The notes under the pieces are model-generated. The model was not told the DNA's origin and did no database searches. It saw only the letters and a program-made list of their open reading frames with translations. This document shows, piece after piece, positions 1 through 16,393 of a stretch of 16,393 nt of DNA. The stretch comes from a virus (Duplodnaviria; Heunggongvirae; Uroviricota; Caudoviricetes), in IMG/VR virus record IMGVR_UViG_2778261657_000002, one strand, 5' to 3'. A program made the translations under genes and the position numbers. The first letter of the stretch is position 1. Each line of letters starts with the position of its first letter.

Positions 1-296
1 CTATTTATCGGAAGGTTTATCTTGCTGCGGTTTGTTGTTGACCATATCGCACAACATAGAGAGCAGCATTAACCGTACTTTAAAGGGAGAATGACTAAAC
101 ACGCGCATACACCTCTTGAACTCATTCATAAGACCTCCTGACTTGCTAATCCCGTCGATCCTTGAGGGATGATTGCATTACATACAGATATAGCACAGGC
201 TATATTATAAAGCATCAACTATCTACGAAAAACAATAACTTACAGTGTTATCAATAAGTTACGTTAGTTAATATCTGTGAGTATTCGGCAGTATTT

Positions 297-1337
297 CTAA
301 GCTGTCGCGACATTTTTGCGACATTTTAAGGGGTTAAGTCGCACGGCATCTTCAAGGTGGCTTGGGGCGAAATGGGCATAACGCATTGTCATAGTGATGT
401 CAGCGTGGCCGAGAATTTTTTGCAGAACCAGAATGTTCCCGCCGTTCATCATAAAGTGGCTGGCAAATGTATGGCGCAGTACATGGGTAAGCTGGCCGGA
501 GGGGAGTTCAATGCCTGCGCGTTCCAAAGCAGAGCGGAACGCGTTATAGCAGGGTTTGGGGAACAGAGCGCCTTTCGTTTCAGGCAATTCGGATAGAAGT
601 TCATCATCAAGGGGGATTGTTCTGTTGCGCTTCCCTTTGGTTTTGACGAACGTAACTTTATCGCCTGCGATCTGAGAGCTTTTCAGCGTTGCCGCTTCAT
701 TCCATCTTGCGCCGGTCGCAAGACAGATTTTTACGACTAGCTCCAAGTATTTTACTTTGCTTCGTTTGCATTCCAGCAAAAGCAGCTCAATTTCTTCAGC
801 AGTGAGGAAAGCCATTTCGGTTTCATCAGTACGATACTGTCTGACGTTTTCCAGTGGGTTGGGGGCTGACCATTCCCCGATTCGTTTCAGCTCGTTGAAC
901 ATAGCCAGGAAGTAAGCATGTTCAAGGTTCATTGTTTTCGGGGAAACCTTGGATACTCTGCTAGTGCGGGCATAATGCCCATCAAGCCTTTTTGCGCGGT
1001 AGGCCGTGAACAGCTGGGCATTAAACTCTGTAGCTAGCGGGAATCCCATGCACTCTGCCGCCCAGGTCATAGCGTCTTTGCGCTTTTGACCATTGCGCAA
1101 AGCTACTCCGTGGCGTTCATACCACATTGTGATCAGGTCTATTAAAGTTCGTTTGTCCTTCCCTTCACCCAGCCAGGGCGCACTGTCTACTTTCTGAAGC
1201 GTATGGTTCTCAAATGCCAGGGCTTCCCCCTTCGTGGCAAATTTTTTACGTATGCGCTTCCCGTTCTTACCATTACTACGGTTGACGGTGTAGAAGTCGG
1301 CGATCCATTCGCCTGTCGGAAGTTTACGAACACTCAT
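297..1337 (-). CDS. int: Phage tyrosine integrase (site-specific recombinase)
   Basis: The C-terminal catalytic region carries the tyrosine-recombinase signature LTHVLRHTFASHF...ILGHADITMTMRYAH (R, H-x-x-R and the nucleophile Y). It lies immediately downstream of the cI-like gene, with the cI stop and int ATG arranged as TGAaATG, as in 186. The ORF track starts at a TTG at 1346; I prefer the in-frame ATG at 1337. Confidence 0.93.
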   Translation of the reverse strand: MSVRKLPTGEWIADFYTVNRSNGKNGKRIRKKFATKGEALAFENHTLQKVDSAPWLGEGKDKRTLIDLITMWYERHGVALRNGQKRKDAMTWAAECMGFPLATEFNAQLFTAYRAKRLDGHYARTSRVSKVSPKTMNLEHAYFLAMFNELKRIGEWSAPNPLENVRQYRTDETEMAFLTAEEIELLLLECKRSKVKYLELVVKICLATGARWNEAATLKSSQIAGDKVTFVKTKGKRNRTIPLDDELLSELPETKGALFPKPCYNAFRSALERAGIELPSGQLTHVLRHTFASHFMMNGGNILVLQKILGHADITMTMRYAHFAPSHLEDAVRLNPLKCRKNVATA

Positions 1338-1338
1338 T

Positions 1339-1917: not shown

Positions 1918-2036
1918 GAAAGTTTTACCTTGAAATCTTGCGCGGAGTGAGTTTAAACTCCGCTTTGTAGGTTTAAGTGAATATTGACAGTTACAGCCCT
2001 GTATTGCCGTACAGGTTAACTTATGGAGTTTGCCTC
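1918..2036. promoter_or_regulatory. Lysis/lysogeny switch region between cI and apl (candidate face-to-face pR/pL promoters and operators)
   Basis: Intergenic region between divergent cI and apl. It contains a consensus -35 hexamer TTGACA (1984..1989, plus strand), an inverted repeat GCGGAG-N10-CTCCGC (1942..1963) enclosing the perfect palindrome GAGTTTAAACTC (1949..1960), and a CTGT-N8-ACAG palindrome (1999..2014). Promoter assignment is inference from 186 biology. Confidence 0.5.
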
Positions 2037-2258
2037 ATGCGTCCGAACATTACAATCATCATCCCAGAGCCATACCTGCCTTTAGACGAGTATTGCCGCC
2101 GTACTGGTACCAACAAAGAAACCGCCAGGAACCTGATCGAATACGGGAAATTACCTATTAAGCCGAAGGGTAAGCAGAAGAAAGGCCTGGTCGAAGTCAA
2201 CATGGCCGCGCTCACTATTCAGGCTTTAAGCGAATGTGACATTTCGCTTAACGCGTAA
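2037..2258 (+). CDS. apl: Apl/Cox-like excisionase and transcriptional regulator
   Basis: Small basic protein (73 aa from the ATG at 2037, with a GGAG ribosome-binding site 8 nt upstream) and first gene of the rightward operon opposite cI, the position of apl in 186 and cox in P2. The ORF track's longer 93-aa version begins at a GTG inside the switch region. Confidence 0.7.
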   Translation: MRPNITIIIPEPYLPLDEYCRRTGTNKETARNLIEYGKLPIKPKGKQKKGLVEVNMAALTIQALSECDISLNA

Positions 2259-2288
2259 TCCATCCTACGGATTAGGGAGAGGCAAACA

Positions 2289-2792
2289 ATGTTTGATTAC
2301 CAGACCTCTAAACATGCGCACTTTGATGCGGCTTGCCGAGCATTTGCAATTGAGCACAATCTTGAAGATGTGGCCGCTGCCGTTGGTATGAGGCCACAGA
2401 TCCTGCGTAATAAACTGAACCCAGCGCAACCGCACCGCCTGACCTGTGATGAACTTTTGGCTATCACGGATTACACCGAAGATGCGCGTTTACTGGATGG
2501 GATGCTGGGGCAGATTAACTGCCTTCCATCCGTACCGGTGAACAATGCAACAGAAGGCAACATGCAACTGTGTGCACTGAGCGCCACAGCCAGTGTGGGC
2601 GCGATTGCTGGGGAAGCCGTATCAGCTGGTCATATGACCGCCGCCCGCCGTACTCAAATTCTGGATCGTGCCCGAGATGCAATCCGTAGCTTATCCGTGC
2701 TGGCTTATACCGTTGAAAGCCGTATTCACTCTGCGCCGGTTTTGGCCGCTGCGGTGGATCTGGTCACAACCAACGCCACCGGCCTGATGTGA
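2289..2792 (+). CDS. cII: CII-like lysogeny establishment activator
   Basis: 167 aa, directly after apl. The N-terminus (MFDYQTSKH...ACRAFA...LRNKLNP.QPH) resembles what I recall of 186 CII (169 aa). A GGGAGAGG ribosome-binding site precedes the ATG. Confidence 0.75.
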   Translation: MFDYQTSKHAHFDAACRAFAIEHNLEDVAAAVGMRPQILRNKLNPAQPHRLTCDELLAITDYTEDARLLDGMLGQINCLPSVPVNNATEGNMQLCALSATASVGAIAGEAVSAGHMTAARRTQILDRARDAIRSLSVLAYTVESRIHSAPVLAAAVDLVTTNATGLM

Positions 2793-2801
2793 GGGAGAAC
2801 C

Positions 2802-2975
2802 ATGAAAGCGTTTGTCACTTACCTGAAAAACGAATCACCGGCCATGCAATTGCCCAGTGGTTCAACGGGCTGGATTGAACTGCCGAACGGTCAGCGCTGG
2901 AACCCTGGCCACATGTACAAATTCAATGGCCAGCAGCCGCGTCGCCCGTGGTGGCGTCGTCTGATGGGGCTATAG
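2802..2975 (+). CDS. Hypothetical small early protein (57 aa), not in the ORF track
   Basis: ATG at 2802 preceded by GAGGGAGA. It translates to MKAFVTYLKNESPAMQLPSGSTGWIELPNGQRWNPGHMYKFNGQQPRRPWWRRLMGL and stops with TAG at 2973..2975. It fills the gap between cII and the next ORF in the same orientation. Confidence 0.45.
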   Translation: MKAFVTYLKNESPAMQLPSGSTGWIELPNGQRWNPGHMYKFNGQQPRRPWWRRLMGL

Positions 2976-2984
2976 GGGGACGCT

Positions 2985-3413
2985 ATGGCGATTAGCCAGG
3001 AACAGCAAAAGCGCGGGCTGGAGCATTTAAAACAGATCCGCCGCAAATACTTCAGCGAAAGCAGCGAGGCCGCTGAATGGTGGGACAACTTGACACCGGA
3101 GTGGCGCGGCGTAGTACTTCATGCTGCTGCGGTTACTTCTGGTACCGGGGCATTTAAAGCCCATTTAAGCAAGTGCTGCTGGCGTGAGCTTTATGAACGC
3201 CTGGGCTATCGGGACATGATTCAACTGCGCCAGGGCATTTCACGGGCGCGGTTAACGTTTGAAGGTTTCGGCAGTTTACGTGACAGCGATTTTTCGAAAC
3301 GTACCGCGAACCGCCCAATCAAGAAGGTTCATCCAATTTATAGCAGCAGCGGGGTGCAGATGGTGGTTGCACCTCATATTGTCCAGAAGTTACAGCAACA
3401 GGGGAATCACTGA
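2985..3413 (+). CDS. Hypothetical early protein (142 aa)
   Basis: ORF with a GGGGGA ribosome-binding site, in the early rightward operon; no recognisable motif. Confidence 0.6.
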   Translation: MAISQEQQKRGLEHLKQIRRKYFSESSEAAEWWDNLTPEWRGVVLHAAAVTSGTGAFKAHLSKCCWRELYERLGYRDMIQLRQGISRARLTFEGFGSLRDSDFSKRTANRPIKKVHPIYSSSGVQMVVAPHIVQKLQQQGNH

Positions 3414-3814
3414 TGTCCATTATTTCGGTTGAAGGTAAATCACTAGGGGCAGAGCTGGCTGTGTGGGGCGTCCCGCATAACTACGCATTAGCGTTTGCAG
3501 AGAAAAGCACCAGTAAAAATGGGCGTATCGCTTTGCATCCGTTCTTCTTCAACGACACTGAACACATGACAAATCCGCGTCACTGGCTGGCGATCAATGC
3601 TGCTTTCTGGTGCTGCGTATATCGCGAAGCGAAAAGCAAAGAAGCCCAGATAGAAGCGCTGGCGGGGATTCGTGCAATTTTCTATACAGCCGGGGCGTTG
3701 GGCGTTGGCGAGATAAAAGCGCTGATCCAGGAGTGGTGGCGGATAACCTATGAGCTGCACCTGATTCCGGCACCGAACTACTCAGCCGCCACAGTACAAC
3801 CCACTTTTCACTAA
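3413..3814 (+). CDS. Hypothetical early protein (133 aa)
   Basis: Its start overlaps the previous stop (TGATG), indicating translational coupling; no recognisable motif. Confidence 0.6.
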   Translation: MSIISVEGKSLGAELAVWGVPHNYALAFAEKSTSKNGRIALHPFFFNDTEHMTNPRHWLAINAAFWCCVYREAKSKEAQIEALAGIRAIFYTAGALGVGEIKALIQEWWRITYELHLIPAPNYSAATVQPTFH

Positions 3815-3881
3815 TTAACAGCCTGAATTTTTTGGCCACGGTTCAAGTGGCCGGGGATTCTTTTGCCTTAAGGAAACCAAA

Positions 3882-4115
3882 ATGCACATGACACGTCAGG
3901 ATTTACCCGCAACAAAATCAGGCACCGACCTGCTGGCCATGCTCACCAAAGCCACGCAGGAAGGTAAAGCCGCAGCAGCTGATCTGTGTTCCACCCGTCT
4001 GGATAAGCTGGCCACTCATGCGGCCAATGAAGGTTTAAGCGCAACGGAAATCGTTGAGTTAATCCGCGAAGAAGCCGCAGCGATTTGCAGCAAAGGCGGT
4101 GCGGCATGGAATTGA
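3882..4115 (+). CDS. Hypothetical small protein (77 aa)
   Basis: AAGGAAA ribosome-binding site 7 nt upstream of the ATG; Ala-rich, probably helical; its 3' end overlaps the exonuclease start. Confidence 0.5.
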   Translation: MHMTRQDLPATKSGTDLLAMLTKATQEGKAAAADLCSTRLDKLATHAANEGLSATEIVELIREEAAAICSKGGAAWN

Positions 4116-4810
4116 GCACTCGCAATCAACTTTTTTCGGCCATTTTGGGTGGGGTGGTTTCTGGTGCCAGAGCTAAAGAAGGGGCTTCGTTGCGCGATGT
4201 GATTCGCCAGTGTTGGAGGATCACCGATCAGTCTCTGTATTTTTCCGACCGTCTGGAAACCGAACAACAGATAGCAAAGCGCTGGATTGATAAGGGCTTT
4301 GTCATTCTTGATACAGAAACCACAGGACTAGGATTTGATGATGAAATTGTAGAAATTTCGATCATCGACTGTGCTGGTTACGTTTTGCTTAATACGCTGG
4401 TCAAGCCATCGAAATCTATTCCAGAAGCGGCAACTGCAATTCACGGTATTACGGATGAAATGGTTGCTAATGCACCATCATGGTTGGAAATTCTGCCGAA
4501 AGTATTGGAGTTAACAAGTAAAGGCTGGGTCGCATATAACGCAAAATTTGATGCGCGTATGTTGCGCCAGTCTGGTGGGGATTATGAACAGCATGAGGAT
4601 ATATGCACCCCTGAGTGCGTAATGCAGCTGTACGCAGATTATAACGGTGAATGGGATGTTGTACGCCGTAAAACCCGCTGGAAACGACTTGTGGATGCAG
4701 CGGCGGCGCTTAAGGTTGATGCCGGAGAAGGTGCACCACATAGAGCGTTGTATGACTGCAATCTGACGCTTGGTGTGATCCTTGCTATTGCAGAAGGCGG
4801 TGCAAAATGA
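4106..4810 (+). CDS. DnaQ-like 3'-5' exonuclease (DEDDh family)
   Basis: Exo I motif ILDTETTGL, Exo II motif YNAKFD and Exo III motif H-x4-D (HRALYD) are all present in the correct order. The ATG at 4106 is preferred over the TTG at 4085 used by the ORF track. Confidence 0.85.
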
Positions 4811-5136
4811 CAATCAAAATCCACACGATAAAGATTGCGCCGAAATACCTTGATGCAGTAGTGGCTGGCCAGAAAAAGGCCGAACTGCGAAAAAACGATC
4901 GCGGGTACAAAACCGGTAATGTTCTTTCACTTTGTGAGTGGAAGCACGGGAAATACACCGGGCGTGAGTGGGCGGCGGTTATCACCCATGTTTTTCCTGT
5001 AAATGAAATTATCGCTGATACCGAAAACTGGGCGGTTTTGTCCATCTGTTCACTGTCGCCGCTTGAAGTGCTGGAATACATCATTTCAAACGGTGTCACT
5101 GAGGCGTTAGCTGGCGGAGGTCAATATGGCCGTTAA
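4807..5136 (+). CDS. ASCH/PUA-like (DUF3850-type) domain protein
   Basis: 109 aa. The N-terminal region ([40 protein letters not shown]) resembles the small beta-barrel ASCH/DUF3850 proteins common in phages. Its start overlaps the exonuclease stop (ATGA). Confidence 0.55.
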
Positions 5137-5986
5137 AACTCCGCTTAAATGGGTGGGCAGCAAAGCCCGCCTTATGCCTAAGCTGCGTCCGCACCTTCCA
5201 GAAGGTAAACGCCTGGTTGAACCGTTCGCAGGTTCCTGCGCCGTCATGATGAATACGGATTATGACGAGTATCTGATCGCAGATGTGAATCCTGATCTGG
5301 TTAATCTTTATAAGGCGATGGCGTATCACACTGATGCGCTGCTGAATGAGCTGGAGATCCTGTTTACTGCCAGTTCGTTAGGTGATGAAGAAAGCCGTGC
5401 CGTTTTCTATTACGCCGTGCGTGATGCTTTCAATCTTTCTGGTGGTAAGGCTGGTTCTGAATCTGTTGAAAATGCTGCGCGTTTCCTGTACCTGAATCGC
5501 CACTGCTTCAATGGCCTGTGCCGGTATAACCGCCGAGGACAGTTCAACGTCCCGTTCGGTAAGTACAAAAAGCCTTATTTCCCCGCTGATGAAATCCGCG
5601 CCTTTGCTGAAAAAGCGAAACGCGCAACGTTCATTACTGCCCACTATTCAGAAACACTCGATTTGGTTCGGGACGGGAATGACGTTGTTTACTGTGATCC
5701 GCCTTATCTGACTGAAAGCGACAATTTCACCGCTTACCATGAGCGCGGTTTTACGCATATGGATCAGGGGAGGCTGGCGCGTAAGTTGCGCCGTCTGGCC
5801 AGAAAAGGTGTGCCGGTTGTGGCCTCTAACGCCGATCTGGAAATGGTTCATTACCTGTACGCCGGATTTGAAGCCGTTCGCGTTAATGCCCCGCGAAGTA
5901 TTGGTGCCGCAGCTACATGCCAAAAGACGGCCGCTGAGTTGATTCTGAAGTCTCCGCTTGATTCCATTGTGGTGGCTTGTGCATGA
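5126..5986 (+). CDS. dam: Dam-family DNA N6-adenine methyltransferase
   Basis: Catalytic DPPY motif (VVYCDPPYL), N-terminal AdoMet-binding region (KWVGSKARL...EPFAGSCAV) and overall length typical of GATC-type Dam methylases. GGAGG ribosome-binding site. The target specificity is not shown by the sequence. Confidence 0.9.
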
Positions 5987-8004
5987 CGCTGGCAATAAAC
6001 GAACAATGCTATGCCGTTGATGCCTGGAGGCGGGAAACATTCGCGCCAGGCACTCCGGCAGACGCGACAATCACAGAACGCCGCCTGTGGGCTGTAAACC
6101 CGCAGGATTATGAATGGCGATCCCGGTACCTGCATGAGATACCCGACTGGTTAGCCGGGTATTTTGGCCGTCGTTACGAAAAGCTTTTTTCTGGCCGTGA
6201 CGGGCGTCGCCGTGCCAATACATTCCTGCGCAAAACAATCGGTGAGAATGTATTGCCACGTCTGCGCAAAGTGGCTGCGCGTTACTCGCTGGCCGCTGAT
6301 GCTGCTGATCTTCCTTTTGGTAAGTCGCTGGAGCGCTTGCCGTCACTAGACCGTCCTGATCTTAAAAAACTGGCTGGCCAGATATCTGGCTGGATTTCCC
6401 AGTCACTTTATGACTTCACCGAACAGTTTGATTCCGGCGCTGACGACGCCAGAGAGCTGCATCGCCGCACCCTGGAATCATACCGCCATCTTTGTGCCTG
6501 TTGCCTGATGCTGAATAACCAGCCGCCGTACTGGGCTGAACATGAGGCCAATGAAGGTCAACTGGAAATGCGTAAGGCGGAATCCGGGATACTGCGCATG
6601 ATGGCGCCGGAATGGTGGTACCTGCGTTTTAAACGTGCTCGTGATACGCAGCGCGAGCACATGGCCATTACGGTGGGACAGGTGCAAAAAGCGGCCAGCG
6701 CTTATGTATCTCGCAAAACACTGGGCGAATGGATAGACCAGAAAAAGCGGAATCTGGAGTTCTTTAAAAAGTTTGATCTGCTGAATGATGAGGGGCTGCG
6801 CATTGCACTGGACAGCATGGTGCACCGCAGCGTTGCAAATCCGGCGATCCGTCGATGTGAACTAATGGTAAGAATGCGAGGGTTCGAAGATATGGCCAAT
6901 GAAGAAGGGCTGGCCGGTGAGTTTTACACTATCACCGCGCCATCACGTTTCCATGCGGTTCACAGCAAAGGGGGCTTTGTATCGCAATGGGATGGAAGTA
7001 CACCGCAGGATACCCAGCGCTATTTATGCGGCGTATGGGCAAAAGCACGCGCAGCGATCTCGCGTGCGGGTATTCATGTATTTGGGTTTCGGGTTGTTGA
7101 GCCTCACCATGACGGGACACCGCACTGGCATATGTTGCTTTTTATGCGTCCGCAGGACGTGGACACGGTGCGCGATATTCTTTGCTATCACGCCAGAATT
7201 ACCGATTCTGAAGAACTGCAATCTGAAAAGGCGCTGAAGGCACGTTTTCATGTTGAAGCTATCGATCCCGCCAAAGGTTCGGCCACGGGCTACATCGCGA
7301 AATACATTTCAAAAAATATTGATGGTTTTGCGCTTGATGGTGAGCAGGACGAAGAAACCGGCGAAAACCTGCGTGATATGGCTAAGTCCGTTTCCGCGTG
7401 GGCTTCACGCTGGCGTATTCGCCAGTTTCAGCAGATTGGTGGTGCGCCGGTAACCGTCTGGCGTGAGCTGCGTCGGTTGCGGGATCAGGTACTGACAGAT
7501 CGCAGAATGGATGCGGTTCTGGCCGCTGCTGATGTCGGGGACTGGGCTGCATATACCCAGGCGCAGGGAGGGGCACTGGTTGCCCGCCGTGATCTGGTTG
7601 TTCGTCTGGCCTATGAAATTACGGAACAGGGCAACGAATACGCGGAGGACGTGCAGCGCGTACAGGGTGTTTATTCTCCTTTGGTTCCTGATTCAGAAGT
7701 TTGCACCCGTCTGGTTAAGTGGCAAAAGGTTGCGAAGTTGGCCGAAGCGCCAGCGGAGGCGGGTTTTTCTGGCGGCAACGCCGCCCCTTGGAGTTCTGTC
7801 AATAACTGTACGGAAGGGGGAACCCGCAGACGGTTAAAACTGGAATTATGCAGTCGGGGTTTTGATGGTTCTGATGAAGAAATAGCGATTCTCCTGCGGG
7901 GTAGTGGTTTGAGATTTGGTCAGGGCGCTCTGATTTACCGCAACGGACGGCTTAAAGAGACTCAAAACGAGCCATTACAGGAGCTGTGGCCGGGGTGGTT
8001 ATAG
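5983..8004 (+). CDS. A: Replication initiation protein gpA (rolling-circle nickase)
   Basis: About 674 aa, with the metal-binding HUH-type motif (TPHWHMLLF) and the paired active-site tyrosines (GYIAKYISK) characteristic of the P2/186 A protein. The start overlaps the dam stop (ATGA). The origin should lie inside this gene but I could not locate it. Confidence 0.9.
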   Translation: MTLAINEQCYAVDAWRRETFAPGTPADATITERRLWAVNPQDYEWRSRYLHEIPDWLAGYFGRRYEKLFSGRDGRRRANTFLRKTIGENVLPRLRKVAARYSLAADAADLPFGKSLERLPSLDRPDLKKLAGQISGWISQSLYDFTEQFDSGADDARELHRRTLESYRHLCACCLMLNNQPPYWAEHEANEGQLEMRKAESGILRMMAPEWWYLRFKRARDTQREHMAITVGQVQKAASAYVSRKTLGEWIDQKKRNLEFFKKFDLLNDEGLRIALDSMVHRSVANPAIRRCELMVRMRGFEDMANEEGLAGEFYTITAPSRFHAVHSKGGFVSQWDGSTPQDTQRYLCGVWAKARAAISRAGIHVFGFRVVEPHHDGTPHWHMLLFMRPQDVDTVRDILCYHARITDSEELQSEKALKARFHVEAIDPAKGSATGYIAKYISKNIDGFALDGEQDEETGENLRDMAKSVSAWASRWRIRQFQQIGGAPVTVWRELRRLRDQVLTDRRMDAVLAAADVGDWAAYTQAQGGALVARRDLVVRLAYEITEQGNEYAEDVQRVQGVYSPLVPDSEVCTRLVKWQKVAKLAEAPAEAGFSGGNAAPWSSVNNCTEGGTRRRLKLELCSRGFDGSDEEIAILLRGSGLRFGQGALIYRNGRLKETQNEPLQELWPGWL

Positions 8005-8081
8005 CGGTGTAAGTATGTGAAAGGCATTCATTTGTCAGTAGATGGCAGGAAATTAAATTTCACAATTCGTGCTTTAAGGTG

Positions 8082-8101
8082 TACTGTATGTATATCCAGT
8101 T
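8082..8101 (+). promoter_or_regulatory. Candidate LexA (SOS) box
   Basis: TACTGTATGTATATCCAGTT matches the E. coli LexA consensus TACTGTATATATATACAGTA at 17 of 20 positions, with CTG-N10-CAG retained. It lies 22 bp upstream of the ATG at 8124. Confidence 0.5.
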
Positions 8102-8123
8102 ATTTATTGCTTGTGGGGGCTAA

Positions 8124-8330
8124 ATGGATCTTTTGGAGGCGTCGGCACAGCTGGAACGCATTGAGTTATTGGCCAAAATTGCCCATATTTACGAAAGTAA
8201 CCAGAGAGAGAAAACAATCGCTTTGGCCTGGATTGGAGAGCTTGCGGGAGAGGTTCGCGAAATGGTAAAAAAGGAAGGGCAACGCCCCCAGAATGGGGGC
8301 ATTTTAGGCGGCGGGGGGCATTTTCAGTAG
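8124..8330 (+). CDS. Small ORF downstream of the LexA box; candidate Tum-like SOS-inducible antirepressor
   Basis: 68-aa ORF (MDLLEASAQLERIELLAKIAHIYESNQREKTIALAWIGELAGEVREMVKK...) with a balanced, helical-looking composition and a GGGGG stretch 5 nt upstream of the ATG. Position after gene A and behind a LexA box parallels tum of phage 186. The function is inferred from context only. Confidence 0.4.
   Translation: MDLLEASAQLERIELLAKIAHIYESNQREKTIALAWIGELAGEVREMVKKEGQRPQNGGILGGGGHFQ
8262..8300 (-). terminator. Candidate intrinsic terminator for the minus-strand late operon
   Basis: On the minus strand, immediately after the ogr stop: GCCCCC-attct-GGGGGC hairpin, then gttGCCCttcc and a TTTTTT run. 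The T-run is not directly adjacent to the main stem, so this is tentative. Confidence 0.35.
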
Positions 8331-8627
8331 GTCTAATGCCATCTGGCGCTGATCGGGTGAAAGTGCATTCAGTATTTTTTGCACCATCGCATCACCCGTT
8401 TTAGCGCTGGGGCTGAGAGTGTGGGAGAACGTCAGATTCATAACAAACGTGTGGCCACACTCAACATCTGAACAGGCGCAGTAAATATCCGCAATCTGCC
8501 GGTGCTTCCGGTTCGTTTTACGAATAACAGCCTTTGAGCCGCATTCCGGGCATTCGATTTTCAGAACTCGCATATTCCATGCTCCAGCTGTTAAATGATG
8601 CCTGGATTTTAGCCTGTTTCGCCTCAT
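8304..8627 (-). CDS. ogr: Ogr/Delta-family zinc-finger late-gene transcription activator
   Basis: Contains C-P-x-C ... Y-C-x-C-x4-C-x2-T-F (ECPECGSKAV...IYCACSDVECGHTF), matching the Cys pattern I recall for P2 Ogr and 186 B. The ATG overlaps the portal stop (ATGA). An internal Met (MRVLKIECPEC, start at 8573) is an alternative start. Confidence 0.8.
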   Translation of the reverse strand: MRRNRLKSRHHLTAGAWNMRVLKIECPECGSKAVIRKTNRKHRQIADIYCACSDVECGHTFVMNLTFSHTLSPSAKTGDAMVQKILNALSPDQRQMALDLLKMPPAA

Positions 8628-9685
8628 GCCGCACCCTTATCCGTTGATTCTGTGTAACTTAAATCAAAGTTAAGGTGTAGCCTTTTCGGTATTTCGGGAT
8701 CGCCGTTAACGGCCAGCATGAAACGGCGCTGGATGGGGGCTATTTCGCTTTTCTTGTAAATGCGTTCAGCCTTTTCAACATCCCCCAGTCCGGCAGTGTT
8801 CTGCGGGACAATACCGGCGAGGCCAGCAGGGAAACGGTGCGCGTTCAGAATGTCCTGGGCGCTGATGTTTTTGATATTGGCAAATTCATCTTTTGCAGAA
8901 ATATCCCCCATTTCGATGAACTTGATTGCATCCCCATCCCCGCCTGGTATGTTCACCAGAATAGTGGAGAAGTTACCGATACCTTTGCTGTCACGCAGCT
9001 GCTGTTCAATTTCTTCTTCCATTTCATCCGTCATACTGGGATCGCGGGTATAAAGAATACCGCCTGTGTGCGCACCGTTGTGGTAATAGCGGCGTCGGAA
9101 AATGACCGCTTCACTGTTAAGTAACGCGGAATGCACACCGCCGATGTAGTCTGGCAGTCCGTAGATATGCTGTTGCGGGTCATACATTTTGATAAAGATA
9201 ATATCTTCTTCTGGCCATACCTGCGGTTCCCCTTCCTGTAACACCACGTAGTCACCGGGTTTATCCTGGGCGTTATCTCTGACTTTGCGGCGGCGAATAT
9301 ACAGACCGGGCAAGGGTTCAAGTGCGATCACGTCGCCCCAGCCGTTACGAATTTTGGCAATCGCAATATCCCCAAAGGTTATATAGTCAAACGCTGCCGC
9401 TTCCAGCTGGTCGTGAATAAGCCCGCCCCCCTGATAGTCTGAAACAATCATGTTTTTACGGGCGTGAATGATGCCGCCGTGCTGACCGTTAAGATTAATC
9501 AGTTGTGCGAGTGCCAGCCGGTCAATCGGCTGGGTGAAGTGATCGGCGGCATTGTCGTACCAGATATCACGGTAATCTGTGCCGGTAGTCAGAACCGGTT
9601 CAGGTTTGCCGAATGTGATAATGCTCATCTTTTTTGATTTGTCGCCGCGCTGGTCGCGCTTAACAAAGCGTTTCTTTTTACTCAT
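8624..9685 (-). CDS. Q: Portal protein (gpQ-like)
   Basis: 353 aa (P2 gpQ is about 344 aa). It lies immediately downstream of, and overlaps by ATGA, the terminase large subunit gene, and is divergent from the scaffold and capsid genes, as in P2. Confidence 0.85.
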   Translation of the reverse strand: MSKKKRFVKRDQRGDKSKKMSIITFGKPEPVLTTGTDYRDIWYDNAADHFTQPIDRLALAQLINLNGQHGGIIHARKNMIVSDYQGGGLIHDQLEAAAFDYITFGDIAIAKIRNGWGDVIALEPLPGLYIRRRKVRDNAQDKPGDYVVLQEGEPQVWPEEDIIFIKMYDPQQHIYGLPDYIGGVHSALLNSEAVIFRRRYYHNGAHTGGILYTRDPSMTDEMEEEIEQQLRDSKGIGNFSTILVNIPGGDGDAIKFIEMGDISAKDEFANIKNISAQDILNAHRFPAGLAGIVPQNTAGLGDVEKAERIYKKSEIAPIQRRFMLAVNGDPEIPKRLHLNFDLSYTESTDKGAA

Positions 9686-11457
9686 GCTGCCTCTTTCCTT
9701 ACACCCCAGCGGGATTTCGGTTTGTTTTCATAGTTAAGGGGTTCGTTATGCAGACCGTGGGTAATCGCCCAGAATGCCTCTGCGTGGCCGGTATCCTGGC
9801 TGCGGTCAGCGACAAACGTCATGGTGTTGCCGCTTTGTGTGGTGGTTCGGCGCACAGACATAAAGCTGGCGGCGATCTCTTTCATATTTTTATCCCACTC
9901 AATACGCTGGCTTTCCACCACGTCCACCGCTTTCAGTACCAGCTTATTTTTTGTGTTCAGGTCGTAACGAATGGGGACGGCCACGCGCATGGCAAAATGC
10001 TGAATGTTGTCAAAAACACCCTGGCCAATGCCGGTAACGTCCACCCCCAGATAAGTGAAGTTGTATTTTTTGAACAACTGCTCGATCTGTTTTGCCTGGT
10101 ACCGGAAGTTCATGCCTTTCCAGTAAATCACCTTCAGAACGCGGAACTTCTCCACGGCGAGCATCGGTGGGGCGATGATGACAAAACAGGACAAATCCCC
10201 GCTGCGAGCCGGGTCAAAGCCACCCCACACTGGCCTGTCACCGAATGGCCGCGCTGCATCAGGGTTGTGATCCTGCCAGGTGTCGATTTCAACTCCGCAG
10301 GCTTCCAGGTCGGAAAAGCTGAAAACGGAGTCTTTGCTGTCAACGAACACGCACATATAGAGCATGTTAAAAGTGGCGTCGTTGTAGCGGTTGCGAAGTT
10401 TCTCGATGTTCGCCAGGTTGAAACCGCCCGTAATGGCATCTTCCATCGTAATGACGTAGCGCCATTGCCCATCCGGGCAGAGTCGCCCGCCGTCACGCAT
10501 TTCGTTAAAAGACGGAAACTTAATGGCCGCACGTTTTTTACTGCCCTGTTTCCACTCATCGCCCGTCCAGAACGGGTAAGCCTGGTGCGTTTTTGCTGAT
10601 GGCGTTGAAAAATAGGTGGTACGCCACTTGTCATGTGTGGCCATTGCGCTGGCCACTTCGTTAAGTTTTGCAAAGTTTGGCACCCAGAAATATTCGTCAC
10701 AGTACAGGTGGCCACTGTAGGACTGGGCGGTGTTTTTGTTGGTGGAGAGAAAACGCAGTTCTGCGCCGTTGCTTAAGCGGATCGGGTTGCCGGTCAGCGT
10801 AATACCGAAATACTGCTCTGCAATATTCACGATGTAAGACCGGAACACTTCAGCCTGAGCCTTTGACGCTGACAGAAAGATTTGCGGAGCGCCGGTCATC
10901 ACCGCGTTTTCAAACGCTTCAAACGCAAAATACCAGGTCGCACCGATCTGGCGGCTTTTCAGGATGTTCCTGACAAGCTGGCCAATGTTATTGCGCAGGT
11001 GTTTCTGATATTCAAAAAGATGTTCCTCAGCCCATGCGTCAAAGTCCTCCTGCGTCAGCGAGGTAATATCGTTTTTCTTGTATTTCCGTTTACTGCGCGG
11101 TTCGTCGTCATTGTTGTCTCGTGCAGCTGCTTGCCCGGAACTCTGACCGCTGGCCATTTTCTCTTTGTGTTTATTACTCTGCGCACGCAGTTTCGTGGCA
11201 TGAGCAATGAGCATGTCCATTTCTTTCAGGTCTAGATCGGTTTTGTTATCGCGGCTGGCCAGCAGCTGGTAACGGCGTTCAATTGCTTCCTCTGTGCTTT
11301 CAAAACTGAGCAAATCCGCCCAGCTGTATTTCTCCGCCCAGTAGTAAACGATCCGCGCATTCGGCAGATTTAATTCAGATGCGATTTCCTTTGGCGTATA
11401 GCGGCGCAGATAAAGTGCGCGAACAACGCCTTTTAATTCTTCAGAGTATTTAGCCAT
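9682..11457 (-). CDS. P: Terminase large (ATPase) subunit (gpP-like)
   Basis: 591 aa (P2 gpP is about 590 aa). Terminase-type deviant Walker A (KSRQIGAT, compare T4 gp17 SRQLGKT). First gene of the leftward late operon. Confidence 0.9.
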   Translation of the reverse strand: MAKYSEELKGVVRALYLRRYTPKEIASELNLPNARIVYYWAEKYSWADLLSFESTEEAIERRYQLLASRDNKTDLDLKEMDMLIAHATKLRAQSNKHKEKMASGQSSGQAAARDNNDDEPRSKRKYKKNDITSLTQEDFDAWAEEHLFEYQKHLRNNIGQLVRNILKSRQIGATWYFAFEAFENAVMTGAPQIFLSASKAQAEVFRSYIVNIAEQYFGITLTGNPIRLSNGAELRFLSTNKNTAQSYSGHLYCDEYFWVPNFAKLNEVASAMATHDKWRTTYFSTPSAKTHQAYPFWTGDEWKQGSKKRAAIKFPSFNEMRDGGRLCPDGQWRYVITMEDAITGGFNLANIEKLRNRYNDATFNMLYMCVFVDSKDSVFSFSDLEACGVEIDTWQDHNPDAARPFGDRPVWGGFDPARSGDLSCFVIIAPPMLAVEKFRVLKVIYWKGMNFRYQAKQIEQLFKKYNFTYLGVDVTGIGQGVFDNIQHFAMRVAVPIRYDLNTKNKLVLKAVDVVESQRIEWDKNMKEIAASFMSVRRTTTQSGNTMTFVADRSQDTGHAEAFWAITHGLHNEPLNYENKPKSRWGVRKEAA

Positions 11458-11619
11458 ACGGATAATTATGCCGTGGTTGTGATGAAAAAACGGTGGTGTT
11501 AATTCGTGTCTGTTCGGTAAAGCGTTATAACCGAACTGTTCAGAATAAAGCGTAATGCAGTGGCGGTTTTATTTGGCAATAATTGAGTTCGCAGGGTCAG
11601 TGAATAAATCAGGGGGGAT
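11458..11619. promoter_or_regulatory. Divergent late promoter region between P and O
   Basis: Intergenic region between divergently transcribed terminase and scaffold genes, where P2 has its Ogr-dependent late promoters. Contains the inverted repeat GTTCGGT-N11-ACCGAAC (11512..11536). I could not find the exact TGT-N12-ACA spacing I recall for P2 late promoters. Confidence 0.4.
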
Positions 11620-12420
11620 ATGTCGCATTTAAAAACTGACTGGCTGTGTGTTGCCACAGAAGGCGATACGGTTGATGGCAGGGTCATGGAACGGCAATGG
11701 ATTATTGACATGGGGGAAACCTATGATGTCACCAATTATGCCGCACTAATCTGGCCTGAACATGAACGATATGCCGGTAATTTTGGCGAAGTGCTAAAGG
11801 CGATGTGGCAGGACGGGGAAGATGGGCTGGCACGATTATATGTGAGCCTGTGTCCTAACAAGCGCCTGTTGTATGCCAATGATGAAGGGCAATTGCTTTA
11901 TTTCTCTGTTGAGCCAGAACTTAACTGGCGCGGAGGTGAGCGAACGTATCTGGGCGGACTGGCCGTAACGGACAATCCCGCCAGTGTGGGCACTACACGG
12001 TTGCGCTTTAGTCGGCGCAGACTATCAAAACAGGGATATTACAGTTGCGTAATTTCCCGTGACGGAAAAATTAAGCAGGAAGAACTGATGAAAAAAACCT
12101 GGCACCATTTATTTGGCATTAAGCCAAAGTTTGAAAGCGAAGGTCAGCAGGATGATACGCAGCAGGGTGATGATAAATTGCAGGCGCTTGCGAATGCTGT
12201 TAACGATCTGGAAGCGCGAGTGGGGGCAATTGAAACACAACTGAGCACTGTTCAGGAAGATGTGGATACTATTGTTGAAGTTGTGGACACGGAAGAGTTT
12301 GCGGCCATTCGTGATAATGCGAAAGAAATCGTAACCCGTTTTAACGATCTGGATAATAAGAATACCCGCTCACCGGGGCGTAAAATTTCAGAAAAAGCCG
12401 GGAAATATAATTTTCTGTAA
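11620..12420 (+). CDS. O: Capsid scaffolding protein (gpO-like)
   Basis: 266 aa. The segments TEGDTVDGRVM and YLGGLAVTDNPASVGTT match what I recall of P2 gpO (GDTCDGRVI, YLVGLAVTDDPASLGT). AGGGGGG ribosome-binding site. Confidence 0.85.
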   Translation: MSHLKTDWLCVATEGDTVDGRVMERQWIIDMGETYDVTNYAALIWPEHERYAGNFGEVLKAMWQDGEDGLARLYVSLCPNKRLLYANDEGQLLYFSVEPELNWRGGERTYLGGLAVTDNPASVGTTRLRFSRRRLSKQGYYSCVISRDGKIKQEELMKKTWHHLFGIKPKFESEGQQDDTQQGDDKLQALANAVNDLEARVGAIETQLSTVQEDVDTIVEVVDTEEFAAIRDNAKEIVTRFNDLDNKNTRSPGRKISEKAGKYNFL

Positions 12421-12483
12421 TTCGCTTTAACGCTGATTAGCCCAGAATAAATTTTATATATCGCTTAATTGCGAGGGAGTTTT

Positions 12484-14532
12484 ATGCACCTTAATAATCG
12501 TGCGCGGGATTTACTGGATAAATATTCGGCGGGGATGGCGCAGCATTTTGGCGCACGTGATACCAGTCGTTATTTTTCCCTGAATGACCCGCAGGAAAAT
12601 GCGCTGCGTCTTGCGTTGCTGGAGTCCGTCGAGTTCCTGAACATGATCACCTGTCTGGATGTTGACCAGCTGAGTGGTCAGGTGATTTCTGTCGGTTCTT
12701 CCGTGCTGCATACCGGCCGCAGTGAGAATGGCCGTTTTATTCGTCGTGTGGGTGTTGACGGTAATGACTATTCGCTGGTTGAGACAGACAGCTGCGCCGC
12801 GTTGCGCTGGGATCTGCTTTCGGTTTGGGCAAATGCGGGTAAGGATGAAAACGAGTTTTTCAATCTTGTCCAGGCATTCACCACACAGGCTTTTGCACTG
12901 GATATGCTGCGTATTGGTTTTAATGGTAAAAGCCGCGCAAAAACCACTGACCCGGAAGCCAACCCGAACGGCGAGGATGTGAACGTTGGCTGGCATGAGC
13001 GTATGAAAACGCTGCTGGGCGGCAATCAGATTATGACCGATCCCGTGGTGCTCGATGAGGCCGGGGATTACAAGTCACTGGATGCAATGGCGTCCGATCT
13101 GATTAACGCCAAAATCCCGGCGCAGTTCCGCAATGACCCGCGTCTGGTTGTCCTTGTCGGTGCCGATCTGGTCGCTGCTGAACAGTACCGACTGTATCAG
13201 GCAGCTGACCGTCCGACTGAAAAAATTGCTGCGCAGATGCTGGGGAGCACCATTGCTGGCCGTCAGGCCATTATCCAGGATTACATCTGGTACCAGTTAC
13301 CTGATGGTTCGCTTTACGTCGGCGGCGTAGAAAAGTCATTGTTTGCCGGTCGTCCAGTAGAAATCCCGTCAGAGTTCAGCCAGGGGGCTGCTGGCGGTAA
13401 CTCTGTGACATTACCAGTGATCCAGACTATACGGCCAGGGGTGGAGATGAACGGTGAACGCGTGACTAAAGTTCACCTGACTAATGACACGATGGCGATC
13501 ACATGGACGCCGAGAAACCGCGCAACGGGTAAACCTTTGCAGAAAACACCAGCGCAACGGCAGATTGAAAGCCATTACCCGGAACTGGCATCCGGGCTTC
13601 ATTTGCCAAAGATGGCCAGAGTCGTGGCGCATTCAGAGCCGGTAAAAAGCGGTAACTTTGCCGATCCCTTCCGGCCACGTTACGCCGTGGACGTGCAGCT
13701 GCTTGACGCAGACGGAAATCCGGACAATCAGACGCCTGTTTATTCAGCGGTGCCGCTGCCGGTACCAATGGCCGGGAATGATTCAGGTATGTTTCAGTTC
13801 CCGCCAGAAGGGACGCTGGTTGAGGTCGCATTCACAGGAGGCAGACCGGATAAACCTTTTATCAGGCAGACGCTGCCGAATGGTACCAGTCTGCCGGACG
13901 TTAAACCCGGTGAGCAATTGCAGCAGCAGCGGGAAGAAGTATCCCAGAGGGTGACTCTGGCGGGTGACTGGGTAAGGCAGACCGATCAGACCATCAGTGA
14001 AACATCGATGGTGCGAACGGTAAAAGCAGATACAGAACAACGTGATCTGGTCAGTCGCGAAACCACGGTTAAAGCCACGGATAAAACCATTGTGGTGGGG
14101 ACCGCCACCCTGCTAGCCGGAGCCTTTCAGCAGGTCAGTGCCGGGGATTTTAGCCAGGCCGTGAAAGGTAACAGGCTGGCCAGCATTGAAGGAAACGAAG
14201 AAACGGACATAGCAGGACAGCAGTCCATTAAAGTGGGCGGTGCTGTAGCCGTGGAGGTTGGCGAAAGCCTGACAGAGAAGATTGCCGCGCTGCGTAAATC
14301 AGTGGCCGCTGGCGGTCAGCAGGTCATGGGGGAAACAGTCCATATTGGCAGTGAGAATATCAACGCCCTGACCATGATGCTGGACACTATTGATTTACTG
14401 GCAGAACTGGCGCTGCAATGCGCGAACCATTCACACCCCACCGTTGGGACTCCAACCAATGCCGCCGCGTTCACACAGACGGCGACGAAAGCCGGGCAGA
14501 CCCGGAGCAAGTACCAGAACATCATTGCCTGA
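12484..14532 (+). CDS. Chimeric ORF: N-terminal gpN-like major capsid region fused in frame to a C-terminal gpV-like baseplate spike region
   Basis: About 682 aa from the ATG at 12484 (GAGGGAG ribosome-binding site), roughly twice the size of P2 gpN (about 357 aa). The N-terminal third to half has capsid-like segments (GFNGKSRAKTTDPEANP...VGW, GDYKSLDAM, DPRLVVLVGADL). The C-terminal part has an OB-fold-like segment (FPPEGTLVEVAFTGGRPDKPF) and a terminal HxH motif (CANHSHPTVG) like the iron-binding spike tip of gpV-type proteins. No stop codon or frameshift separates the two parts. Confidence 0.6.
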   Translation: MHLNNRARDLLDKYSAGMAQHFGARDTSRYFSLNDPQENALRLALLESVEFLNMITCLDVDQLSGQVISVGSSVLHTGRSENGRFIRRVGVDGNDYSLVETDSCAALRWDLLSVWANAGKDENEFFNLVQAFTTQAFALDMLRIGFNGKSRAKTTDPEANPNGEDVNVGWHERMKTLLGGNQIMTDPVVLDEAGDYKSLDAMASDLINAKIPAQFRNDPRLVVLVGADLVAAEQYRLYQAADRPTEKIAAQMLGSTIAGRQAIIQDYIWYQLPDGSLYVGGVEKSLFAGRPVEIPSEFSQGAAGGNSVTLPVIQTIRPGVEMNGERVTKVHLTNDTMAITWTPRNRATGKPLQKTPAQRQIESHYPELASGLHLPKMARVVAHSEPVKSGNFADPFRPRYAVDVQLLDADGNPDNQTPVYSAVPLPVPMAGNDSGMFQFPPEGTLVEVAFTGGRPDKPFIRQTLPNGTSLPDVKPGEQLQQQREEVSQRVTLAGDWVRQTDQTISETSMVRTVKADTEQRDLVSRETTVKATDKTIVVGTATLLAGAFQQVSAGDFSQAVKGNRLASIEGNEETDIAGQQSIKVGGAVAVEVGESLTEKIAALRKSVAAGGQQVMGETVHIGSENINALTMMLDTIDLLAELALQCANHSHPTVGTPTNAAAFTQTATKAGQTRSKYQNIIA

Positions 14533-14622
14533 CCATTCCAGACAGCCCACAAAACGCGGGGTTTGTCGTTTTCTCAGTTCCTTGATAGGATTATTGCATA
14601 CTCAAATGATAGGAATAGGGAT

Positions 14623-14955
14623 ATGAAAAATTTCATTATATTAGCTGTAGGAGCAGCAGTTTCATTCAATGTGTTTGCGGCTGAGGTTGTTTATGTGCCA
14701 ACAGATACGAAGGCTAGTTACACGATTTTAGATAAGACTCGCGACGGCAGCATGGCTACTATAACAACCGAAAGAAAGGGGCCGTCTGGAACATCATATT
14801 CAAAGCGGCTGTACGACTGTACTGCCGGGACAGTTAAATATCTTGGAGACGGTGAGACCATCGAGCAGATGAATAACTCGGCACCAGATCCAAATATGGC
14901 CCCTATAGTTGACCGCTCAATTGCATACTACATTGGACAAAAAGCCTGTCAGTAA
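14623..14955 (+). CDS. Small exported protein of unknown function (110 aa with a signal peptide)
   Basis: N-terminal MKNFIILAVGAAVSFNVFA-AEV is a typical Sec signal peptide with an AXA-like cleavage site. Two cysteines in the mature part, AGGAA-type ribosome-binding site, followed by a strong intrinsic terminator. GC content is lower than in the phage genes. The ORF track's longer form starts at 14563, but the signal peptide begins at M21. Confidence 0.6.
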   Translation: MKNFIILAVGAAVSFNVFAAEVVYVPTDTKASYTILDKTRDGSMATITTERKGPSGTSYSKRLYDCTAGTVKYLGDGETIEQMNNSAPDPNMAPIVDRSIAYYIGQKACQ

Positions 14956-14995
14956 CTACGTTCTTATATCGGTTGATATGAATTGAACACACCTT

Positions 14996-15020
14996 AACCC
15001 GCATTGTGCGGGTTTTTTTG
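14996..15020 (+). terminator. Rho-independent terminator
   Basis: AACCCGCA-ttg-TGCGGGTT hairpin followed directly by TTTTTTT, 40 nt after the stop of the exported-protein ORF. Confidence 0.75.
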
Positions 15021-15532
15021 TACCCACCACCAGACCGCACAGAACGCTCTCAGCAGGCGGGACAACACTAGGGTAACCACTGCGACACCGCAATAAGATC
15101 AAATTCACAGCGACGCTCTGAGGTAGCCACATGCAGACAAAATAAATCTTTCGCAGACAAAAACGGCACTACACCGCACCCGCCTGCGGTTTCTGGATCG
15201 ATAAATTTTTTCAGTTTTATTTTTCTACAAACCAGACTGTCATCTCGCGCCAGCACTGGTGGCTTTGCGGAAAACCCAAACTGAAAAGATTGAAAAGAAT
15301 TTCAGTGTTTATCAGTTTTTCGTGGGGATAAGGTTGTTGTGAGTATTCTATCTTTATGATTTATATATATTATTTTTATTTTCTTTGATGTTATATCGAA
15401 GTCGTGTTTCAGCCTGATTTATTGAACTGATTGATTTTATGGCAATTTACCATATAGATGGCTTGGATTTTATTGCAATAAATCATAAAATAGATCATTC
15501 AAAAATCAATCATTCTTTATGCTAGGTATCTT

Positions 15533-16393
15533 ATGGATAGCAAGTTGAATCTTGATGAGGCAGGTAGAATCGCTTGGCAGCATGCAGCACTTGTTTTGAG
15601 CAAGAAAATTGGTATCGGTTCTAAAAAATTTAATGAAGACCTGAAGGTTTTAATTAATCAATTTGGGAATATTGAAAACATTTATCAATATCACTTTGGC
15701 ATGGTTCCAATCGATCCTGATTTGATTCGCGTACTCGATAAAAAATTTTCCAACCTAAATTTTAAGTTTGAAGTATTACAATTTAATGATGAACTATATC
15801 CCAACGCATTGAGACAAATTTATGGGATTCCCCCAATCTATTATTATAGAGGCGATGTCAGTTTGTTGGGGATTGAGGATAGTATCTCTTTTGTTGGGAC
15901 GCGAAATCTTGATGAAAAAGCGTATATTGAACATGGTGTTGATGTTATAAAAAGATTATTTTCTGCGGGCTATAAGGTCATCGTAAGTGGATTGGCTAAA
16001 GGTTCGGATACCCTCGGACATAAAACAGCAATAGAATTAGGGGGGCGAACCATTGCTGTATTAGGAACACCTCTTGATGTATCTTATCCAGCGGAAAATA
16101 AAGTGTTGCAAAATCAAATAGCAACTGAGCATTTAGTAATTACTGAATATCCTATCGGGATTGGTAGTTTTGGAACATACTTCGCAAATAGAAACCTCAC
16201 TACCGTAAGTTTATCGCACAAAGGAATAGTAGTTGCACGTGCTGGTGATAAAAGCGGTACTCAATATGCGATCAAAACTTGTATTGAGCAAGGTAAGCCG
16301 GTTTACGTTTTGGAAAATAATATCTATGAGCCTGATTTTAAATGGGTAGAAAAATATAAAGATAAAATAAAAGTAATTAGAATGACAAAATAA
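15533..16393 (+). CDS. DprA/Smf-family (SLOG-fold) DNA-processing protein homologue
   Basis: 286 aa. The Rossmann-like core matches DprA signatures: PPIYYYRGDVSLL...ISFVGTRNL...VIVSGLAKGSDTLGHKTAIELGGRTIAVLGTPLDVSYPAENKVLQNQIA...LVITEYPIG...FANRNLTTVSLSHKGIVVARAGDKSGTQ (compare E. coli Smf VVSGLARGID..AH..AL..GG.TIAVLG.GLD.IYP..N..L). The gene is very AT-rich and stops at the last base of the window. Confidence 0.8.
   Translation: MDSKLNLDEAGRIAWQHAALVLSKKIGIGSKKFNEDLKVLINQFGNIENIYQYHFGMVPIDPDLIRVLDKKFSNLNFKFEVLQFNDELYPNALRQIYGIPPIYYYRGDVSLLGIEDSISFVGTRNLDEKAYIEHGVDVIKRLFSAGYKVIVSGLAKGSDTLGHKTAIELGGRTIAVLGTPLDVSYPAENKVLQNQIATEHLVITEYPIGIGSFGTYFANRNLTTVSLSHKGIVVARAGDKSGTQYAIKTCIEQGKPVYVLENNIYEPDFKWVEKYKDKIKVIRMTK

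Follow-up and report, generated by a model that had tools for sequence, protein, structure and literature searches.

A DprA-like gene at the attR-proximal end of a decayed P2-like prophage is the likely antitoxin of a divergent ShosTA-like module

An AT-rich DprA-like gene in a prophage cargo slot

The DNA analysed here (the window, 16,393 nt at its full length) is the Caudoviricetes record IMGVR_UViG_2778261657_000002. The DNA is that of E. coli and starts in mntS, and its last bases are the stop codon of a 286-codon open reading frame (ORF) for a DprA-like protein. A preliminary description of the sequence had taken this gene for a stand-alone, horizontally acquired DprA/Smf paralogue beside a prophage scar. 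In our analysis, the gene does not stand alone: it is the first of a conserved, operon-like gene pair, and it is likely the antitoxin (ShosA-type) of a ShosTA-like toxin–antitoxin (TA) and anti-phage module, which is carried as attR-proximal cargo by a P2-like prophage between mntS and mntR. The coordinates of all features are collected in Table 1.

An intact counterpart of this prophage is found in E. coli EC101 (NZ_CP196707.1; locus L005 in our dataset), where it is P2-like and likewise lies between mntS and mntR. By blastn, window positions 1–13276 correspond to L005 1857–15132 and positions 13269–16393 to L005 28900–32024, with 99.9% identity. The prophage scar is thus real, as 13.8 kb of the interior are missing from the window relative to the intact EC101 prophage. 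The DprA-like gene belongs to the prophage, where it is placed after the last conserved late gene (110 aa, phrog_13843) and before attR. These two landmarks delimit a slot whose contents vary across the prophage family, with a serine acetyltransferase gene in one prophage and two small hypothetical genes in another, and homology with related prophages bearing other cargo breaks at window position 15315/15316 to 15316/15317 (L005 30946/30947). A second E. coli allele of the ShosTA-like pair (61% identical) occupies the same slot at the same mntR site in this prophage family. The locus is a variable cargo slot rather than part of the replication module.

The cargo is also retained when the phage decays. 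In E. coli PSS-07, the prophage carries a separate, independent deletion of 23.9 kb (junction at L002 12001–12005) that leaves only the int-to-exonuclease part, and this remnant keeps all three cargo genes intact (the pair and a third gene described below). Two prophages have thus decayed independently without loss of the ShosTA-like cargo, and the module outlasts the phage.

Fold and family of the DprA-like protein

The 286-aa protein consists of a SAM-like helical N-domain (residues ~9–73) and a Rossmann/SLOG domain (residues ~78–282), the latter matched by Pfam PF02481 (DNA_processg_A) over residues 78–276 with an E-value of 1.8e-44. Across 31 aligned family members, the DprA motifs S152-G-L-A-K-G-S-D159, GTR124, and R220-N221 show no or almost no variation. 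An AlphaFold2 (AF2) model built from the 31-relative alignment (mean predicted local distance difference test score, pLDDT, of 93.3; predicted template-modelling score, pTM, of 0.91) displays a four-helix SAM-like N-domain followed by the Rossmann domain, and the chain ends four residues past the last strand (E279-282). In a Foldseek search of the PDB, the leading match is the S. pneumoniae DprA (3UQZ, E 3e-18, template-modelling score, TM, of 0.71), followed in order by the R. palustris DprA, ShosA (8ZVA, full-length, E 1e-13, TM 0.71), and the H. pylori DprA. Much weaker matches are made to molybdenum-cofactor carrier and LOG proteins of the SLOG superfamily (E 1e-4 to 1e-3, TM ~0.4). The DprA/SLOG fold and the named motifs that had been read from the sequence are therefore borne out. 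The ATG at position 15533 is supported as the start because the N-terminus MDSKLNLDEA is also found in the 80%-identical Dickeya homologue.

The gene is a true extra dprA paralogue, as had been proposed. EC101 encodes a separate canonical DprA (374 aa, 707164–708288) in the core neighbourhood smg-dprA|def-fmt, and this protein is 29% identical to the prophage-encoded one. Hence, the prophage gene is neither the sole dprA/smf of the genome in a core neighbourhood nor a protein from outside the DprA/SLOG superfamily. It shares with canonical DprA/Smf the PF02481 domain, the SGLAxGxD and GTR/RN motifs, and the SAM-plus-Rossmann fold, but it lacks the C-terminal DML1 domain, is prophage cargo joined operonically to a phosphoribosyltransferase (PRTase) gene, and scores below the NCBIfam equivalog cut-offs (122.4 versus 191.15 bits for TIGR00732 and 94.4 versus 495 bits for NF008007). 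RefSeq labels the gene "DNA-processing protein DprA" and its 437-aa partner "hypothetical protein", and a PHROGs search matched only families of unknown function.

A HAD-PRTase gene follows immediately downstream

Among 5,426 complete E. coli genomes, the allele is present in four (EC101, 20KM0223N, MEI148-20EC, and PSS-07), and in all four a 437-aa ORF begins 11 bp after the DprA-like stop codon. The junction, TAA-AAGGGGGGGTT-ATG, contains a strong Shine–Dalgarno sequence. The 437-aa protein comprises a HAD-type hydrolase domain followed by a PRTase domain, which are matched only weakly by Pfam (NIF, a HAD family, at 2e-4 and Pribosyltran at 7e-3). In an alignment of 33 relatives, the HAD phosphatase motifs (FD7-L-D9-x-T11, S68-DSP, K97-P, and G116-D117-SPK-D121) are invariant, as is the loop that binds phosphoribosyl pyrophosphate (PRPP), IIID379-D380-VVT383-S384-G385. 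The general PADLOC model for ShosT (PDLC03962) matches the PRTase part only, at 4.7e-10, while the specific ShosT model (PDLC03012) gives no match.

With an AF2 model of the partner (pLDDT 93) as the query, the top two PDB matches in Foldseek are both ShosT structures (8zvd and 8zvc), aligned over the whole length with E 1.5e-6 and a probability of 1.0, and the next are HAD phosphatases, including a B. thetaiotaomicron pyrophosphatase. The preliminary description had also raised the idea of a conflict system with partner genes beyond the end of the window. A partner is indeed present in the relatives, but rather than a nuclease, TIR, SIR2, helicase, or recombinase, it is a HAD-PRTase of ShosT architecture.

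Conservation of the gene pair

Relatives of the DprA-like protein with lengths of 280–292 aa occur in Dickeya (80% identity), Yersinia, Raoultella, Pectobacterium, Serratia, Pseudomonas, Vibrio, Shewanella, and Aeromonas, and the next gene encodes a 439–460-aa protein on contigs of V. parahaemolyticus, Pseudomonas, and the second E. coli lineage. In a pairing scan with one genome per species, restricted to loci with a DprA-like gene at least 37% identical, a ShosT-like ORF lies immediately downstream on the same strand in 22 of 22 loci (hmmsearch E-values between 1e-30 and 1e-190). Gammaproteobacteria account for eight of them, and the remaining 14 come from metagenome-assembled genomes (MAGs) or single-amplified genomes of Nanoarchaeota, Woesearchaeota, Pacearchaeota, and "Methanosarcinales". 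In related loci, the reading frames of the pair overlap or nearly abut. The surroundings of the pair vary and are often defence-island-like: the Pseudomonas pair adjoins Multi_ubiq/ThiF/BubE genes, and the Vibrio pair is found in islands.

This pattern bears on whether the gene could instead be a recombination mediator that serves the phage, with a minimal DprA loading RecA on, or protecting, phage single-stranded DNA (ssDNA) and the HAD-PRTase being an unrelated nucleotide-salvage moron. The ssDNA-binding arginines are kept, the nearest solved structure by sequence is the S. pneumoniae DprA (E 1e-29, versus 7e-12 for ShosA), and DprA-family genes are found in many unrelated phages, such as those of Burkholderia, Listeria, Pseudomonas, and Thermus. 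Nevertheless, we consider this reading improbable, as the pairing with the HAD-PRTase is strict in the 22 related loci and extends to non-phage contexts, including Vibrio islands and the Pseudomonas island with its neighbouring ubiquitin-like (Bub-type) defence genes, and as the gene sits in a variable cargo slot and is kept when the phage shrinks to a remnant. For shosA, antitoxin behaviour has been reported: as long as the PRTase gene is active, deletion of shosA by itself is lethal or cannot be obtained (Millman et al., 10.1101/2022.05.11.491447). When searched against phage DNA with tblastn, the DprA-like protein finds only distant DprA genes (36% identity or less over long alignments), and megablast against a phage collection returns short backbone matches only, with the allele present in no phage record.

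The occurrence of ShosTA-like modules in DPANN-type archaea was unexpected. On the 14 archaeal contigs (L025–L038), the antitoxin is 37–49% identical to the E. coli one, and the GC content of the module equals that of its flanks.

Comparison with characterised ShosTA and other systems

A DprA-like and PRTase gene pair, found as cargo of a P2 hotspot next to cos, protects E. coli from T7 and lambda (Rousset et al., PMC9122126), and a pair of this kind has been validated as a defence system under the name ShosTA (Millman et al., 10.1101/2022.05.11.491447). The characterised systems come from E. coli APEC O1 and KTE181, with the A-then-T pair ABJ01487/ABJ01488 (PMC11961720). ShosT contains an N-terminal HAD-fold hydrolase with pyrophosphatase activity (residues 1–164) and a PRTase (residues 165–424), and its toxicity requires PRPP binding through D331/D332 and R285 (PMC11961720, PMC12961424). 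ShosA is dimeric and combines a SAM domain (residues 1–94) with a DprA Rossmann domain; its C-terminal tail makes it unstable (PMC11961720, PMC12961424). It contacts ssDNA via R139 and R234 and RecA via K200 and R206, and both contacts are needed for neutralisation (PMC12961424). The system is a type IV TA, as neither protein binds the other, and ShosT is released by transcription shut-off mediated by T7 gp0.7 or by excess ssDNA (PMC11961720, PMC12961424). In Peduovirus P24C9, which also carries the system, shosA (gp42) precedes shosT (gp41) directly after gpA.

The pair described here agrees with ShosTA in having two co-directional genes, A then T, as P2-like prophage cargo. In both, the antitoxin consists of a SAM-like domain and a DprA Rossmann domain without DML1, and in the toxin, a HAD-fold hydrolase at the N-terminus precedes a C-terminal PRTase of ~260 aa whose PRPP loop has the pattern DD...T.G. 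Both ssDNA-binding arginines are kept, R124 and R220 here being equivalent to R139 and R234 of ShosA and invariant in 31 sequences, and K248 aligns with ShosA R261. In the toxin, D379/D380 of IIIDDVVTSG align with D331/D332 of ShosT (LVIDDFCTEG), the pair required for toxicity. On the basis of architecture, gene order, the modelled structural match of the toxin, and the mobile-element context, we file the pair under ShosTA, within which its sequences suggest a distant, divergent clade.

The differences are also considerable. The antitoxin is shorter than those characterised (286 aa versus 328–331 aa) and by sequence lies nearer to the S. pneumoniae DprA than to ShosA, with the E-values given above. 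The toxin here keeps the canonical HAD motifs (FDLDxT, SDSP, KP, and GDSPKD), whereas the DxD nucleophile motif is lost in the characterised clade (consensus LKGVIFxxxDV). The slot is next to attR rather than at the gpA-cos hotspot, and the module has a GC content of 35%.

Several further observations weigh against the assignment to ShosTA. The antitoxins are 30% identical over the Rossmann core only (E 2e-14). The RecA-contacting residues K200 and R206 of ShosA correspond to A187 and Q193 here; Q193 is invariant in the clade of the 286-aa protein, while position 187 is a lysine in many members. Helix alpha14 and the disordered C-terminal tail of ShosA are missing here and in close clade members. 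The toxins are not alignable by BLASTP, which found nothing significant against ShosT, and phmmer against PDB sequences found nothing relevant. In hhalign, the partner profile reaches 1.3% probability against the single ShosT sequence, and a profile–profile comparison of the two toxin clades reaches 25% probability (E 7.6e-4) over the HAD domain only. Because these direct sequence links failed, the ShosT assignment of the partner is based on architecture, Foldseek, and synteny. The clade is described here from sequences and models, and since the partner gene lies outside the window, its presence in the strain of origin is inferred from genomes that are 99.9–100% identical over the overlap.

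The last point of this kind concerns annotation. The general PADLOC model for ShosA (PDLC03961) matches the 286-aa protein at 2e-52 (176 bits), but with 193 bits the canonical E. coli DprA exceeds it on this model, and the specific ShosA model (PDLC02997) matches the 286-aa protein at only 2e-14. The PDLC03961 match is thus a sign of DprA-family membership only, and we rejected it as proof that the pair belongs to ShosTA. More generally, housekeeping DprA proteins of E. coli (L006 7164–8285) and Firmicutes reach 193–243 bits on this model, above or near true ShosA-type proteins. As PDLC03961 cannot separate ShosA from housekeeping DprA, calls must be based on the partner gene.

Other systems with similar components fit less well. 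PsyrTA/RqlHI, a TA or defence pair, likewise brings together a DprA-like part and a PRTase, according to the literature. The 286-aa protein does match the PADLOC PsyrA model (4.5e-19), although far below the ShosA score, but the partner here is a HAD-PRTase, for which PADLOC returns ShosT as the sole match, the DUF6680 protein described below has no PADLOC match, no PsyrT model matches the neighbouring proteins, and no helicase-type gene is found at the locus. The competence protein ComF(C) and the PRTase effectors of retrons are further points of comparison; ComF differs from the partner in having a zinc-finger N-domain and no HAD domain. ComF is not known to act as a toxin, nor, to our knowledge, does its gene adjoin dprA in a mobile two-gene module.

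Proposed mechanism and alternatives

By analogy with E. coli ShosTA (PMC11961720, PMC12961424), shosA and shosT would be co-transcribed, and the PRTase of the toxin would consume PRPP to form an aberrant phosphoribosyl product, with the HAD domain removing pyrophosphate or a phosphate and thereby pulling the PRTase reaction forward. As a result, the purine pool would be disturbed and replication damaged. The DprA-like dimer, bound to ssDNA via R124 and R220, would channel RecA-type recombination repair, such that the toxin is neutralised indirectly, with no contact between toxin and antitoxin, as in a type IV TA system. Infection would lift this protection, either through shut-off of host transcription or through a flood of phage ssDNA and replication intermediates, and the freed toxin would then halt host and phage DNA replication, leading to abortive infection. 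The trigger is the least certain of these steps because the antitoxin is without the instability tail and the RecA-contact residues. As it is the tail that confers instability on the characterised antitoxin, the trigger mechanism may differ in this clade.

It is possible, if not what we expect, that the clade differs enough from ShosTA to count as mechanistically separate, either in product chemistry or in the trigger, for example by direct titration of the antitoxin by phage ssDNA rather than antitoxin decay. In that event, the module would pair a toxin whose HAD phosphatase is catalytically competent and whose PRTase is ComF-like with an antitoxin that is a minimal DprA of the S. pneumoniae type. 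A separate reading, in which the DprA-like protein senses phage ssDNA and activates or derepresses the canonical-HAD/ComF-like PRTase as an effector (for example, one that makes a nucleotide analogue and then dephosphorylates it) and the pair is not a type IV TA system at all, appears unlikely to us. The pair shares its gene order and its two-protein, four-domain architecture with ShosTA, nothing points directly to a different product or trigger, and the DD motif of the PRPP loop is the one required for ShosT toxicity (PMC11961720).

The SLOG fold raises another alternative, that the antitoxin acts as an enzyme. The chemistry of LOG proteins is formally the reverse of the PRTase reaction, and a LOG-like phosphoribohydrolase could in principle hydrolyse the toxic nucleotide made by the PRTase, which would fit the SLOG-superfamily fold and the LOG and molybdenum-cofactor carrier proteins among the weaker Foldseek matches. 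The LOG catalytic motif is PGGxGTxxE. In the 286-aa protein, the equivalent stretch reads A237-GDKSGTQY-A246, with A246, invariant in 31 sequences, at the position of the catalytic glutamate. Neutralisation by ShosA, furthermore, needs the ssDNA-binding arginines and the RecA contact (PMC12961424). We regard an enzymatic antitoxin as very improbable, and with the ssDNA-binding R124 and R220 kept and A246 replacing the LOG glutamate, the earlier thought that this SLOG fold might serve as a nucleotide-sensing module is unsupported and unneeded.

Under the ShosTA-like interpretation, the seemingly orphan DprA paralogue would supply one of the two genes of a prophage-borne abortive-infection module of a known type, and it does not point to any new biological principle. 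ShosTA-type modules would then occupy a second, attR-proximal cargo slot in this P2-like prophage family, outliving the decaying phage, and the divergent clade could be used to test the generality of ShosTA features such as the HAD catalytic residues, the antitoxin tail, and the RecA contacts. Should the clade instead prove mechanistically different, it could, together with the split PRTase/DprA/HAD triads described below, illustrate how competence-type proteins (DprA and ComF) were recruited into immunity.

Base composition and upstream region

The claim that the gene is far more AT-rich than its phage neighbours holds: it has a GC content of 0.353 (0.28 at third codon positions, GC3), compared with 0.515 for the prophage backbone and a GC3 of 0.58 for the capsid gene, and sliding GC is 0.32–0.37 across the DprA-like gene versus 0.50–0.56 in the phage genes. 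The same module has a GC content of 0.34–0.47 against surroundings of 0.50–0.55 in Enterobacterales and Pseudomonas, and equals its surroundings in Vibrio, Shewanella, and the archaeal MAGs. This pattern across hosts agrees with recent horizontal acquisition in E. coli, as had been suggested from the base composition.

A scan for sigma-70 promoters upstream of the gene found no consensus site on the + strand, with total counts under the shuffled expectation. The promoter for shosA-shosT is presumed to lie within the AT-rich leader, 15317–15532.

Prophage ends, deletion junctions, and neighbouring features

The attachment core was located by alignment with the empty site of K-12. The sequence GCTATATTATA, at window positions 199–209, is present as a single copy in the empty K-12 mntS-mntR spacer, and the attR copy of the core lies downstream of the cargo and beyond the window (L005 34448–34462), 105 bp upstream of mntR in EC101. 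The 19-bp repeat GCGACATTTTTGCGACATT had been a candidate for the att core, which was revised when the alignment with the empty K-12 site placed the core at GCTATATTATA. This repeat is positioned ~100 bp inside each prophage end, and its copies are probably arm-type integrase sites. Because an identical 19-bp copy is found ~100 bp inside attR, the cargo falls within the phage genome.

The 13.8-kb deletion in the window has created an in-frame gene fusion, in which 5′ sequence of the major capsid gene (gene N) runs into 3′ sequence of a spike-like gene of 567 aa. We also considered whether deletion at microhomologies promoted by ShosA was the cause of the prophage scars, and rejected this, as both junctions have only ~5 bp of microhomology, no more than is usual in illegitimate recombination.

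The 437-aa gene is followed, 152 bp further on, by a third AT-rich cargo gene, whose 235-aa product is a DUF6680 protein (Pfam 1.1e-47) with no match in PADLOC or PHROG. We rejected this gene as a third component of the system, since the homologous modules of other genomes lack it, among them the second E. coli allele in the same slot.

Table 1. Coordinates of features in the window and at related loci (window positions unless a locus number is given)
Feature	Position	Strand	Remarks
attL core (GCTATATTATA-A-AGC)	199..213	.	mntS-mntR spacer; three-way alignment of K-12 attB, EC101 attL, and EC101 attR
19-bp repeat GCGACATT-TTT-GCGACATT	307..325	.	perfect repeat, L005 2163 and L005 34330-34348
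capsid/spike-like fusion ORF	12469-14532		in-frame product of the 13.8-kb deletion
deletion junction	13269..13276	.	blastn against the EC101 prophage; ~5-8 bp microhomology
terminator-like hairpin at the end of the phage late-gene block that precedes the cargo	14996..15014	+	8-pair stem, 5 GC pairs, T-run; consensus match alone
AT-rich leader of the cargo module	15317..15532	+	GC ~0.32; shosA-shosT promoter presumed here
shosA-like ORF	15533..16393	+	ATG-to-TAA, 286 codons; predicted antitoxin / ssDNA-binding component
DUF6680 gene	L001 20971-21675		~1.5 kb beyond the window end
slot examples in relatives	L003 4419-5459; L004 ~4200-5300; L015 5761-8537
split-triad / distant loci	L058 5221-7624; L060 324-2428; L095 5139-7346; L063 5692-8457; L039 6913-9765
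ShosTA structures			ShosA: PDB 8ZVA, 9VZO; ShosT: PDB 8ZVB, 8ZVC, 8ZVD

Distant loci

Outside the clade, Cyanobacteria, Bacteroidota, Acholeplasmataceae, and others have more distant DprA-family genes with small PRTase-like and small HAD genes on their flanks, and these separate genes look like split versions of the toxin. In one Bacteroidia MAG, the DprA-like gene is followed by a gene for a 951-aa protein in which a HAD domain, 19 MORN repeats, and a PRTase domain are joined in this order.

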